From an uncultured Gemmatimonadales bacterium (GTDB taxonomy: Bacteria > Gemmatimonadota > Gemmatimonadetes > Longimicrobiales > RSA9): 64,000 bases of DNA. Made by a program: the position numbers and the translations under genes. The stretch covers positions 192,001 to 256,000 of the forward strand of contig CAWCRS010000009.1 of assembly GCA_963798085.1 (NCBI GenBank). The letters run 5' to 3'. Below, one piece after another: positions 52,909 to 56,492 of the stretch. Positions within the stretch are counted from its first letter, which is position 1; each line of letters starts with the position of its first letter. The notes under the pieces were generated by a model. It ran no database searches, was not told the origin of the DNA, and saw only the letters and a list, made by a program, of their open reading frames with translations.

Positions 52909-54408
52909 TCAATACCGCGGCACCGCAGGATCGACCTCGTCGGACCATGCGAGGATCCCGCCCTTGAGGTTCCAGAGCCGGCGGAAGCCCGCGTCACGCA
53001 GCTGGCGGAGTGCCTTGCCGCTGCGCGCGCCCGAGCGGCAGTACAGCACGATTTCGTCGGCGCTGCTCAGCTCGTTCATGTGCTCGGGCAACGTGCCAAG
53101 CGGGATCAGTCGTGCGCCATACAGTCCGAGATTGCCGATTTCCCATTCGTGCGGCTCCCGCACATCGACGAGGACCAGCGGCTCCTCTCTGTCGAGGCGC
53201 TGCTTCAGCGTCGTCGCCGTGATCTCCGGGATAGTCTTCTGCTCGGCCTCTTCCGCCGCGTGTGCCTGCGGGATGCCGCAGAACTCATCGTAGTCGATGA
53301 GGCCGGTGAGCGTGGGGTGCTCGCCGCAGATCGGGCAATTGGGATCCTTGCGCACCTTCAGCTCGCGGAACCGCATGGCCAGCGCATCGAACAGCAGCAG
53401 CCGGCCGATCATGGCGTTGCCGCGATCGATGATGAGCTTGATGCCCTCGAGCGCCTGCAGCGTACCGACGATGCCGGGCAGCACACCCAGCACGCCGCCC
53501 TCGGCGCAGCTGGGCACCAGTCCGGGCGGCGGCGGTTCGCGGAAGAGGCAGCGGTAGCACGGCCCCTCCTTCGCGTAGAATACGGAGAGCTGCCCCTCGA
53601 AGCGGAAAATCGAGCCGTAAACATTGGGTTTGCCCAGCAGCACACAGGCATCATTGACGAGGTACCGTGTGGGGAAATTGTCGGTGCCATCGATCACGAT
53701 ATCCCAGGGCTCGAGGATCTCCAGCGCATTGTCGCTGCGCAGCGGCGTCTCATGCCCGATCACATCAATGTGCGGATTGATGTCGAGCAGCCGGTCGCGC
53801 GCGGATGCGATCTTGGGCCGGCCCACATCCTTCGTGCCGTGCAGCACCTGGCGCTGCAGGTTGGTTTCGTCGACGACATCGAAGTCCACGATCCCAATGG
53901 TGCCCACACCCGCCGCGGCGAGGTAGAGACCCAGCGGCGAGCCCAGACCGCCCGCGCCCACGCACAGGACCTTCGCCGCCTTCAGCCGCTTCTGCCCCTC
54001 CATGCCCACTTCCGGCATGATCGAGATGGCGGCTGTAGCGGCGGATCTCCTCCGCCGACAATGCGACATCACCCGCGCGTGCCGCGAGCAATGCCGAGAG
54101 TAATGTCGCCTCTTCCAATGCGGTTCCCCCTGTTGCCCCGCCGGCAATGCTGGGCACAATGGTAATGGTGTCGCCCTCGTGGATGCGCGCAGCCGCGCCA
54201 CCCAGCGCGCGCGCGTCATCCTCGTTGATGTACGCGTTCACGAAATTGCGCAGACTGCCGCGCTCATCATAGAGGTGCGGCCGGAGCGATGGATGCTGCG
54301 TCACCAATGCTCCAGCGCCTCGCCCACCGTGGCCGCCGCAACACTGACCTCCTGTCCGCCGCCCGCGTACTGTTTCAGCGCCGCCGGTATCCGTATGGTC
54401 ACGCTCAT
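52909..54408 (-). CDS. moeB: MoaD/CysO-like sulfur carrier fused to MoeB/MoeZ E1 enzyme and rhodanese, frameshifts near 54305 and 54023
   Basis: MSVTIRIPAALK...TIVPSIAGG continues in frame to LSAEEIRRYSRHL; then GAGGLG, NLQRQ, CYRC, CPIC and rhodanese CRSGARS. Confidence 0.85.
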
Positions 54409-54430
54409 TCTGACCCCGCAGTCTCGTGTC

Positions 54431-54856
54431 TCAGTCCTCGACGTGCATGACTTCTTCTGCGAACGACGACCGGTCCTCCGCCATGCGCCAGGCTCTGGTC
54501 TCCGCCGGCTCACCCTGACGCACGCTGACGATCAGGTAGGTATACCACGGCCACGAGTGCTCGAGGTCGAAAGCCGAAGGCGATGCCGGATGGTCGGGGT
54601 GCGAGTGGTAGAAGCCCACGATCTCGAGGTCATCACGCGCGGCCGCGCGCTCGATCTGCAGCATGGCATCGGGGGGAATCAGGTAGCGCCGCTCGCGCTC
54701 ATCCGTGCGCGCGTTCGCCACACTCGCCACGCCCGCAATGCGGCGCATGGCGCCGTCCTGATCACGGCCCAGCAGCACGCCGCAGATCTCCTCGGGATAA
54801 CCGTCCCTTGCGGCCTCACGAATGACCGCGAGATGCAGCTGCTCAATGCGTATCAA
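54431..54856 (-). CDS. JAB/MPN+ (M67, Mec-like) metallopeptidase
   Basis: YPEEICG and YHSHPDHPASPSAFD (JAMM motif). Confidence 0.92.
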   Translation of the reverse strand: MIRIEQLHLAVIREAARDGYPEEICGVLLGRDQDGAMRRIAGVASVANARTDERERRYLIPPDAMLQIERAAARDDLEIVGFYHSHPDHPASPSAFDLEHSWPWYTYLIVSVRQGEPAETRAWRMAEDRSSFAEEVMHVED

Positions 54857-54915: not shown

Positions 54916-55875
54916 TCATGCGCCCGGTCCGTTCTCGGCGCGCAGCCAGGCTTCCGAGAGGTAGCGCTCGCCCGAGTCCGGCAGCAGCGTGGCGATCACC
55001 GAATGCACCGGCGCTTCCGCGGCAACGCGCAGCGCGGCCACGACGTTGGCGCCGCCCGATACGCCCGCCAGCAGGCCCTCTTCGCGCGCCAGCCGACGGG
55101 CCATCCGCTGCGCATCCTCGGTCTCGATCTCCATCATCCGATCCGCCAGCGAAGGGTCGTAAATGCCCGGCACGATCGCCGTGGGCATGTGCTTCAGACC
55201 TTCCAGCCCGTGAAACGACGAAGCCGGCTGCACCGCGATGAGCACGATGTCATCACGGTACATGCGCAGCCGGCGGCCCGTCCCCACGAAGGTGCCGCTC
55301 GTACCCAGGCCGGCCACGAAATGCGTGATGCGACCGCGCGTCTGCTGCCACAGCTCGTAACCCGTGCCCTCGAAATGCGACTGCACGTTCGCCCGATTGT
55401 TGTACTGGTCCGCGTAGAAGTAGCGCTCCGGAAACTCTGCGGCACGCCGTCTTGCCTCACGGATGGCGCCGTCCGATCCGAATTCCGCCGGCGTGATCAC
55501 GAGCCGCGCGCCGTACGCCCGCAGCATCTGCTTGCGCTCCTCACTGGCTGTTGCCGGCAGGCAGATCTCGCAGCCGTAGCCGCGTTCCGCGCACAACATG
55601 GCGTATGCGATCCCGGTGTTACCCGAGCTGGCGTCGAGGAGTGTGCGACCGGCACGCAGCAATCCCTGCCGCTCGGCCGCACGCACGATCGCCAGCGCCG
55701 GCCTCGCCTTCACACTGCCGCCGGGATTCTGCCCTTCCAGCTTGACCAGCACGCGCGCACCACCCGCCGGAGCCAGGCGCTGCAGCGGCACCAGCGGTGT
55801 GTGGCCAATGGCCGCCTCCAGCCGGCCAGCGGGCTCATCCAGCTCGGAGATGACGACGTGGGGCATGGATGACAT
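54916..55875 (-). CDS. cysM: PLP-dependent cysteine synthase (CysM/CysK family)
   Basis: IGHTPLV, KLEGQNPGGSVKAR, SSGNTG, GLGTSGT, GVSGGAN, LPDSGERYLS. Confidence 0.9.
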   Translation of the reverse strand: MSSMPHVVISELDEPAGRLEAAIGHTPLVPLQRLAPAGGARVLVKLEGQNPGGSVKARPALAIVRAAERQGLLRAGRTLLDASSGNTGIAYAMLCAERGYGCEICLPATASEERKQMLRAYGARLVITPAEFGSDGAIREARRRAAEFPERYFYADQYNNRANVQSHFEGTGYELWQQTRGRITHFVAGLGTSGTFVGTGRRLRMYRDDIVLIAVQPASSFHGLEGLKHMPTAIVPGIYDPSLADRMMEIETEDAQRMARRLAREEGLLAGVSGGANVVAALRVAAEAPVHSVIATLLPDSGERYLSEAWLRAENGPGA

Positions 55876-55891: not shown

Positions 55892-55936
55892 AAAAAAGAA
55901 CGGCCGCGGGCTTCAGAATATCTGGCCCACGGCCGC
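55892..55936 (-). terminator. Intrinsic terminator in the 5' leader of the cysteine operon (attenuator terminator)
   Basis: GCGGCCGTGGGC-loop-GCCCGCGGCCGT followed by TCTTTTTT, about 16 nt upstream of the cysteine synthase start. Confidence 0.8.
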
Positions 55937-56050
55937 TGGGTTCGGAGAACCGACCGCCCCCTGAATGGGCGGCCTCAGCCGTCGGCCCCAGGGGCGCCGC
56001 ATCATGGCGCCCAGGCTCGAACAACAGCAGCTGCGACGGCAATCGTGCAT
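55913..56050 (-). CDS. Cys-rich leader peptide (MHDCRRSCCCSSLGAMMRR...)
   Basis: Four Cys codons in the first ten, including TGC TGT TGT, upstream of a terminator and a cysteine synthase. Confidence 0.65.
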   Translation of the reverse strand: MHDCRRSCCCSSLGAMMRRPWGRRLRPPIQGAVGSPNPAAVGQIF

Positions 56051-56492
56051 CACGTTTTTCGGTCCCCGCCAGGTTTCACGAGCGGGCCCATCCGGCACCC
56101 GCTTCACAGCCCTTCAAACCCGCGCGCCGCGATTCCGGTTCCAGACCTTCGCCAGTGTCGGCAACACATCCTGCCGCCGCGTCGCTCGCCGCAGCACGAT
56201 CTCGCTCCCCGCGCGCGTCCGCTGATCGAGTTCGCTGGCCTCTGCACGTCGACAGGGTCAGCCGTACGGATTTGCTCACACCGGGGTCACAGGGGGACTG
56301 AGGGGCGCAGTTCGGGGCTGCGGCTGGCCGTCCGCGAGGGGCTTGGTGAGGCAGTTCGATTTTCCGCATCCCCGGCAACCCGCCGGGACGTGGAGCTGCA
56401 ATTCGAGGTGATGTCGGCCGGCGCGGCGCCCGCTAACTCAACGTTACAACCGCCGCCCGGCCATCCCTCTGCTCTCCGGGTGGACGGAGAGG

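Follow-up and report, generated by a model that had tools for sequence, protein, structure and literature searches.

Classical trp/his attenuators contain a short open reading frame with codons for the end product, a competing antiterminator and an intrinsic terminator located before the first biosynthetic gene (10.1101/834739 and PMC4007540, in their accessible parts). Leaders with cysteine codons have been described in a few lineages, and the following statements refer to the accessible parts of the papers. Brewer et al. (2021) reported uORFC-8-2 before cysS in Rhodobacterales, which has a Cys-Cys leader and a predicted intrinsic terminator (PMC8632094), and de Groot et al. (2014) predicted transcription attenuation at a Cys leader of cysS in Deinococcus deserti (PMC4007540). 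Actinobacterial Cys leaders without terminators were predicted by Seliverstov et al. (2005) (PMC1262725). The mycobacterial polycysteine leaderless small open reading frames of the Ms5788A type were investigated by Canestrari et al., who showed by experiment a response to cysteine that is translational (10.1101/834739). In these accounts, translation is the target of the tested cysteine leader (10.1101/834739), and the leaders taken to control transcription are those predicted for cysS (PMC8632094, PMC4007540). In Mycobacterium tuberculosis, the genes mec-cysO-cysM and moeB1 are under direct control of SigH, which has the consensus GGAA-N19-GTT (PMC4803200, accessible part).

The locus described here was found in a window of 64,000 nucleotides (the whole stretch of DNA analysed), the nearest named relatives of which are Longimicrobiales/Gemmatimonadetes. 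A conserved Cys leader and a terminator precede an operon composed of a cysM-like cysteine synthase gene, a JAB protease gene and a gene for a fused ubiquitin-like sulfur carrier and MoeB-type E1 enzyme (cysM-JAB-Ubl/MoeB). We regard this arrangement as a probable trp/his-type transcription attenuator that reads charged tRNA-Cys and likely lies behind a SigH-type thiol-stress promoter, with a probability of about 0.78 judged from sequence. The features are listed in Table 1. The leader MHDCRRSCCC, its Cys codons, the hairpin behind them, the pairing at 11 of 12 positions, the terminator and the stop were all recovered on the minus strand where the original prediction had placed them.

Table 1. 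Features of the leader, the operon and related loci (window positions unless a contig of the window's genome, G000, is given)
Feature	Position	Strand	Basis
Predicted ECF (SigH/sigmaR-type) promoter: GGAAC 56142-56138, 18-nt spacer, GTT 56119-56117	56117..56142	-	motif match
Leader ORF as sequenced, 45 aa, MHDCRRSCCC...	55913..56050	-	ATG 56050-56048, homolog L111
Cys control codons: Cys4 TGC 56041-56039; Cys8-10 TGC TGT TGT 56029-56021	56021..56041	-	family enrichment of Cys and TGT
Possible segment 1, GCCGTCG	56034..56040	-	predicted 1:2 helix with 55984-55978 (MFE, centroid, full-length fold); window copy only
Hairpin GGGCGCC 56012-56006 / GGCGCCC 55998-55992	55992..56012	-	folds
Segment 2, predicted antiterminator strand GGCCGACGGCTG	55976..55987	-	predicted pairing with 55935-55924; nascent-RNA fold P 0.91
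8-bp hairpin GGCCGCCC / GGGCGGTC, loop holds homologous stop position	55952..55974	-	folds
CAG at the family's leader-stop position, 25 nt before terminator	55961..55963	-	aligns with TAA of L111
Small hairpin GGTTC / GAACC	55939..55951	-	folds; L111 arms identical, loop different
Intrinsic terminator: 5' arm 55935-55925, 3' arm 55911-55901, U tract 55900-55892	55892..55935	-	sequence, folds, covariation in 31 members
Cysteine synthase, cysM-like PLP enzyme	54916..55875	-	NCBIfam cysKM, Pfam PALP, structure neighbours
JAB-domain protease, mec-like	54431..54856	-	Pfam Prok-JAB
Fused ubiquitin-like sulfur carrier (ThiS fold, ...IAGG) and MoeB/MoeZ-like E1 with rhodanese	52909..54411	-	Pfam ThiS, ThiF, Rhodanese; NCBIfam MoeB/MoeZ
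His leader MNRVALHRHHAHHHG..., six His codons, stop and terminator directly before hisG (L245)	G000:C5:160850-161010	+	
Phe/Tyr-rich leader MQSARAFFYYYFYA..., stop and terminator before DAHP synthase (L246)	G000:C12:83030-83170	-	
SigH-like ECF sigma gene (L234)	G000:C12:64658-65200		HxxxCxxC anti-sigma ORF with it
SigH-like ECF sigma gene (L233)	G000:C5:576439-576999		HxxxCxxC anti-sigma ORF with it

The cysteine synthase scores 344.7 bits on NCBIfam cysKM (over the cut-off of 344.15) and 341.5 bits on cysM (under the cut-off of 394.2), and its nearest solved structures are those of cysteine synthase B. Three-frame translation shows that the Ubl-MoeB gene, as sequenced, is interrupted by two frameshifts, one near 54305 and one near 54023. 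The list of open reading frames contains a further frameshift in the gene at 63068-60494 on the minus strand of the window, which we take to be Lon-protease-like. The frameshifts in these two genes (54411-52909 and 63068-60494) indicate an error-prone long-read assembly.

An ortholog of this cysM gene was found in six of the 73 genomes of the taxonomic family and in 43 of 401 genomes sampled from the class. The resulting set of 47 loci comprises L001-L004, L032 and L111-L152; L031, the sequence of which equals that of L003, and L005, which has no 5' end, were left out. The JAB gene follows cysM in 46 of the 47 loci, the exception being cut at a contig end, and MoeB is present in all 33 loci with enough downstream DNA. 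A Cys-rich leader with a GGCCG-type terminator was found at 31 of the 47 loci. These 31 members were chosen by eye; the 16 non-members are L113, L114, L116, L132, L135, L137, L141, L142, L144-L148 and L150-L152.

The operon encodes the same four functions as the SigH regulon of M. tuberculosis, namely cysteine synthase, JAB protease, sulfur carrier and E1-rhodanese; unlike in M. tuberculosis, they form one operon, the carrier and E1 are fused, and the attenuator lies between the promoter and the first gene (PMC4803200, accessible part). The leader resembles uORFC-8-2 and the D. deserti cysS leader in that a Cys-codon leader is predicted to control transcription, in uORFC-8-2 likewise with a terminator. 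The cysS leaders have two Cys codons and precede the cysteinyl-tRNA synthetase gene, whereas those described here have 2-9 Cys codons, precede a biosynthetic sulfur-carrier operon and occur in other phyla (PMC8632094 and PMC4007540, accessible parts). The window element is set apart from uORFC-8-2 by gene (cysteine synthase, not cysS) and by lineage (not Rhodobacterales). The original prediction held that Cys-rich leaders had been predicted mainly in Actinobacteria and were not known to have intrinsic terminators. This does not stand, since uORFC-8-2 is predicted with one, and because of the earlier cysS leader predictions the novelty claimed was too strong (PMC8632094, PMC4007540, accessible parts). 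Like the Ms5788A type, the leader is a short open reading frame with runs of Cys codons that precedes cysteine or sulfur genes. That type hides the Shine-Dalgarno sequence, was shown not to use transcription termination and is leaderless, whereas the terminator here covaries, the Shine-Dalgarno-like sequence lies outside it and the window copy is predicted to be leadered (10.1101/834739, accessible part).

In the literature covered, no description was found of such a leader for a cysM operon in Gemmatimonadota, Acidobacteriota or Chloroflexota; this coverage was largely of open papers rather than subscription ones, and further Cys leaders of this kind may be listed in supplements (Table S9 of PMC4007540; the motif tables of PMC8632094 and of PMC11109978). 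The accessible parts of PMC13613805, PMC13236596 and PMC4833913 contain nothing on a Gemmatimonadota cysM leader family. The design is that of the textbook, and the Gemmatimonadota cysM leader family appears to be undescribed.

Judged by its GC stem and U tract, the element between the leader and the first gene is an intrinsic terminator. Its stem has 11 bp, and the 12 bp originally counted are reached with the closing G.U pair; the U tract TTCTTTTTT (55900-55892, minus strand) follows, and only 16 nt separate it from the cysM start. Across the 31 members, 94% of the cells are paired and six of nine pairs show double changes; the covariation score was reached by none of 500 shuffles, and slid registers pair at 30-61%. 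A consensus scan for a sigma-70 promoter and a terminator found nothing at the window locus. In our reading, the simple scan missed the terminator probably because it allows only loops of 3-8 nt and the top of this hairpin is longer and bulged. The Shine-Dalgarno-like GGAG at 55888-55885 (minus strand) lies outside the terminator and is unpaired in the centroid fold; translational control by hiding of this sequence was therefore rejected.

The leader ORF is preceded, about 12 nt 5' of its ATG, by a purine-rich GGGGA, and an in-frame GTG at 56053-56051 (minus strand) is an alternative start. Its closest homolog, L111 (G076:C64), begins with MHDSCRPCGCPC and is the one close homolog among the 73 genomes of the taxonomic family. 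L111 retains the leader, the hairpins and the stop, and its U tract is weak (TTCGATTC). The first hairpin has a counterpart in L111 (GGGCGCG / CGCGCCC) with a double change that retains the pair, and the 8-bp hairpin is retained via compensatory changes (GACTGTCC / GGGCAGTC, with TAA in the loop). A 13-codon ORF (MGPLVKPGGDRKT) at 56091-56050 on the minus strand of the window, the terminal TGA of which overlaps the leader ATG, is not conserved in L111; at locus L002, a longer ORF overlaps the leader start.

At least three Cys codons in eight were found 55-125 nt upstream of 15 of 260 strict terminators in the window's genome, and at least four upstream of two of 260, one of which is the window locus. 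Chance at a single locus is not negligible because the genome is GC-rich. A looser genome scan was not selective enough, with 3593 Cys runs of which 129 had a hairpin, so the strict-terminator count was used instead. Conservation across relatives rules out chance for the Cys leader. Among the 46 loci with sufficient upstream DNA, taken without selection, at least four Cys in eight codons were found in 17 on the sense strand and none on the antisense strand, with 0.1 expected, and at least three in 28 on the sense and three on the antisense strand, with 4.1 expected. Cys is the most enriched of the 20 residues upstream of cysM, and one of 24 paralogous cysK/cbs loci carries a 4-Cys run. The three cysK/cbs paralogs of the window's genome have no Cys leader within 450 nt, and a covariance model (R1) matched the window locus as the sole site in its genome. 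No Rfam riboswitch, T-box or leader model matched (best E 4.2, 18.7 bits against a gathering score of 45). The original prediction had proposed examination of covariation and of Cys-codon conservation, and both bear it out. Of the Cys run and the pairing, on the conservation of which in relatives it had staked its reading, the run is conserved and the pairing is supported at the level of the family. At L029, a paralogous cysteine-synthase locus, the upstream DNA contains a hairpin resembling a terminator and an ORF rich in Cys (CFCCSC).

The same arrangement was detected outside the phylum. The 4-Cys runs occur at 15 of 77 genome loci and nine of 63 metagenome loci from outside the phylum. Among 183 other loci, which include Acidobacteriota and Chloroflexota, a 4-Cys leader is present in 26, 21 of these with a terminator; the distance from stop to hairpin is 13-30 nt in Acidobacteriota and 45-74 nt in Chloroflexota. 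In L035 and L042 (Blastocatellia), an ORF rich in Cys (..CCC..CCCC) extends up to the start of cysM and leaves no space for a terminator; these two loci may represent a variant that acts by translation or by coupling. Four of the non-member loci have a different gene upstream of cysM in place of the leader, and a script filter found a second ORF in three of them. The upstream gene is presumably Rrf2-like and the second ORF sulfurtransferase-like, which suggests that repressor control replaces attenuation in one leader-less lineage (L236-L239).

The stop of the leader lies 24-33 nt before the terminator hairpin in 25 of the 30 members other than the window copy, and upstream of the terminator in all 30. 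In the window copy alone, the in-frame stop as sequenced is TGA 55915-55913 (minus strand), in the top of the terminator. The original prediction proposed that a single indel would move the stop to TGA 55977-55975. This is not preferred: L111 has TGG at that position in the same frame as the window copy (RGRRL vs WGRRL), its TAA aligns with CAG 55963-55961, and the alignment of the two leaders contains a single in-frame gap of 3 nt between start and stop. A stop at 55977-55975 would be 39 nt from the terminator, close to the 43-47 nt of three members, and L111 is a single point of comparison, so that the indel retains some probability. The sequence is best explained by a correct reading frame in which the stop was lost by one substitution or base miscall at 55963-55961, since the TAA of L111 aligns there.

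The family may be a working attenuator of which the window copy is a natural stop-loss allele, with readthrough into the operon whatever the cysteine supply and the promoter as its main point of control. We treat this as a special case of the attenuator reading; it applies to the window copy only and is a tentative possibility that we rate somewhat below even. The in-frame CAG, the next stop within the terminator and the weak U tract of L111, as if the lineage were relaxing the switch, are consistent with it; the Cys run, the hairpins and the full U tract, all retained in the window copy, argue against it. A miscall is plausible, given the assembly errors nearby, namely the two Ubl-MoeB frameshifts and a one-base difference at 56453 between the window and a near-identical contig. 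In our judgement, a miscall or a still-working switch is somewhat more probable than a natural loss. With the sequence as it stands, switching of the window copy may be impaired, since ribosomes would enter the terminator.

In the window copy, GGCCGACGGCTG (55987-55976) pairs with CGGCCGTGGGCC (55935-55924) at 11 of 12 positions, with one G.G. This pairing is not better than in shuffles of the window copy (z -0.4 and z 0.0, p 0.13-0.35, rank 12 of 31). In the nascent RNA ending at the loop, the 5' arm of the terminator is paired upstream with P 0.91 whether the ribosome is stalled or absent, and a ribosome placed at 55963 reduces this pairing to 0.0, partly by construction. At full-length equilibrium, the terminator of the window copy wins in every ribosome state (P 1.0; -64.2 vs -48.3 kcal/mol), and the terminator falls below P 0.3 on stalling in only seven of the 31 members. 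The alternative folding originally proposed is thus seen in the nascent RNA and not at equilibrium; since equilibrium favours the terminator, the switch must be kinetic.

The family provides the evidence for a mutually exclusive antiterminator. Pairing of a leader with the terminator arm of its own locus is 3.15 kcal/mol more favourable than with the arms of other members (0 of 20000 permutations). The mean z against shuffles is -1.57, control windows give +0.16 and -0.41, and windows further upstream are null. The stabilisation is -14.2 kcal/mol compared with -8.5 kcal/mol in shuffles and is better than in shuffles in 29 of the 31 members. Of all 31 leaders, 11 pair their own arm at p<0.05. 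The p-values of these family tests are overstated because the genomes are kin. For the most part, the pairing strand falls in the stretch of the leader ORF that follows the Cys run and precedes the stop. Matched changes of both arms were observed in L143 (GGGTCG with CGACCC) and in L130 (GCTCGC with GCGAGC). In a subset of 17 sequences tested against a structure derived from one member (L123), 82.7% of the cells are paired in the L123 register compared with 28-55% when it is slid; the number of pair types does not exceed that in shuffles (139 of 500), and a slide of -2 equals the register in double-change pairs. The RNAalifold prediction comprised the terminator and one small hairpin and lacked the antiterminator. 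A mutually exclusive antiterminator is therefore supported by sequence comparison across the family and not in the window copy alone.

It is unlikely that no true antiterminator exists, that the leader works through ribosome position, RNA polymerase coupling or Rho, and that the pairing is a by-product of high GC content. The absence of significance in the window copy taken alone, the equilibrium folds and the high baseline, as shuffled leaders already pair the terminator arm with P 0.62, would fit such a leader. They are outweighed by the advantage of own over other arms with null control windows, by the 29 of 31 members that exceed their shuffles and by the matched changes in L143 and L130. 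The trp/his-type logic of the original prediction is supported for the family, by conservation, covariation, the antiterminator tests and the other leaders of the same genome. It is weaker for the window copy, in which the antiterminator is not above shuffles and the stop lies inside the terminator.

The original prediction did not include the SigH-type promoter motif at 56142-56117, which was found in the follow-up. Transcription would start near 56110. The motif ends 66 nt before the window leader ATG, so that a leadered transcript is predicted for the window copy; locus L004 looks leaderless. The sequence GGAAC-N18-GTT has two matches in the window against 0.93 expected, which is not significant alone. 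With a free spacer, the motif occurs before 19 of the 31 leaders (antisense 0; shuffle expectation 0.15), and four other leaders have sigma-70-like boxes; two of the 16 non-member loci carry the motif. In this promoter motif and in the predicted sensing of cysteine, the Gemmatimonadota leader differs from classical trp/his leaders. GGAAY-N18-GTT also precedes thioredoxin genes in 21 of 29 genomes (antisense 0), which points to a probable thiol-stress regulon in Gemmatimonadota. The thioredoxin loci compared are L248 (G000:C7:1375003) and L289-L316. Genes of G000 that we take to be PIG-L/BshB-like also carry GGAAC-N18-GTT. At spacer 18, the motif shows no genome-wide enrichment (85, against 77-186 for other spacers).

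The Gemmatimonadota pattern equals the GGAA-N19-GTT of the SigH regulon and is common to thioredoxin, and the sixth base of its -35 element is mostly a pyrimidine, which is linked to SigE rather than SigH (PMC4803200, accessible part). The promoter is inferred to be a thiol-stress (SigH-type) promoter under stress control. The two SigH-like ECF sigma genes of G000 score 152 and 129 bits, both under the family cut-off of 251.55, and the anti-sigma beside L233 scores 44.3 on RsrA against a cut-off of 62.5. The promoter motif lies 43 nt upstream of L234, an HxxxCxxC ORF follows this gene, and of the two it is the stronger candidate for a cognate, self-inducing sigma factor. The motif precedes three of 31 sigma loci, which is weak evidence for autoregulation of sigma.

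The His and Phe/Tyr leaders of G000 (L245 and L246) are each followed by a stop, a GC hairpin and a U tract, and classical attenuation therefore appears to be in use in this organism. L246 is likely a Phe/Tyr attenuator. The sigma-70-like boxes of L245 end 7 nt before the ATG, and this hisG leader may be leaderless. Near position 77829 of G000:C9 (minus strand), outside the window, a strong terminator follows a sigma-70-like -35 box before a gene that we take to be panB-like; this is a possible further attenuator.

The leaders contain 78 TGT and 64 TGC codons, whereas the cysM genes of the same loci contain 19 and 59, respectively. In 1472 long ORFs of the window's genome, TGT and TGC number 1371 and 5523, and a single tRNA-Cys with anticodon GCA is present. 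TGT occurs in 31 of 31 leaders, the spacing of Cys varies freely, and no other residue is conserved. These properties bear on a reading in which the nascent Cys-rich peptide is itself the sensor, with thiol oxidation or metal binding stalling the ribosome and opening the terminator under thiol stress. The thiol-stress-type promoter motif on the transcript and the CxC or CCxxC spacing in many leaders would suit such a peptide. We nevertheless consider it improbable: the free spacing and the lack of other conserved residues speak against it, the excess of TGT points to decoding rather than peptide chemistry, the downstream genes make cysteine, and the His and Phe/Tyr leaders of the same genome obey the end-product rule. 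Least probable is a stand-alone small protein (one that buffers metal or redox state) encoded by a short stress transcript that the terminator ends with fixed leak-through, since, although promoter motif, short ORF and terminator form a self-contained unit and the leaders carry 2-9 Cys, nothing beyond Cys is conserved, the peptide has no NCBIfam match, fixed spacing and matched pairing would be needless, and the U tract stands so close to cysM.

In the attenuator reading, an ECF sigma factor would start the transcript near 56110. When Cys-tRNA is short, the ribosome would stall at the Cys codons (56041-56021), and the segment 55987-55976 would trap the 5' arm of the terminator before the 3' arm is made. 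RNA polymerase would then read through into the operon, the products of which would make cysteine via the sulfur-carrier route. This route of cysteine synthesis is an established pathway. It is described for M. tuberculosis in PMC4803200 (accessible part). When Cys-tRNA is ample, the ribosome would reach the stop about 25 nt before the terminator and strip segment 2, the terminator would form and transcription would end at 55892-55897. Expression of the operon would thus require stress at the promoter as well as a shortage of cysteine. Nascent-RNA folds form the antiterminator without a ribosome in 23 of 31 members, so that loss of leader translation may give readthrough and not super-attenuation, in contrast to the classical systems. 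In the window copy, a real loss of the stop would carry the ribosome into the terminator and probably make it leaky, whereas a miscall at CAG would leave the switch intact.

We lean slightly towards a wider picture, in which the Gemmatimonadota operon is a two-input gate of a thiol-stress ECF sigma factor and a Cys attenuator with a true antiterminator, the same attenuator family operates in Acidobacteriota and Chloroflexota, and an Rrf2-type regulator replaces it in one lineage; it would then be the first attenuator of cysteine biosynthesis demonstrated to act by transcription termination. The mechanism is that of the textbook, and the surprise is therefore moderate. With its dozens of naturally varying copies, in which antiterminator and terminator arms match, the family permits a direct test of classical attenuation by Cys codons before a biosynthetic operon. 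For a soil phylum that has received little study, it also provides an initial outline of gene regulation, in which a thiol-stress motif is common to thioredoxin and the cysteine operon and is accompanied by His and Phe/Tyr attenuators.
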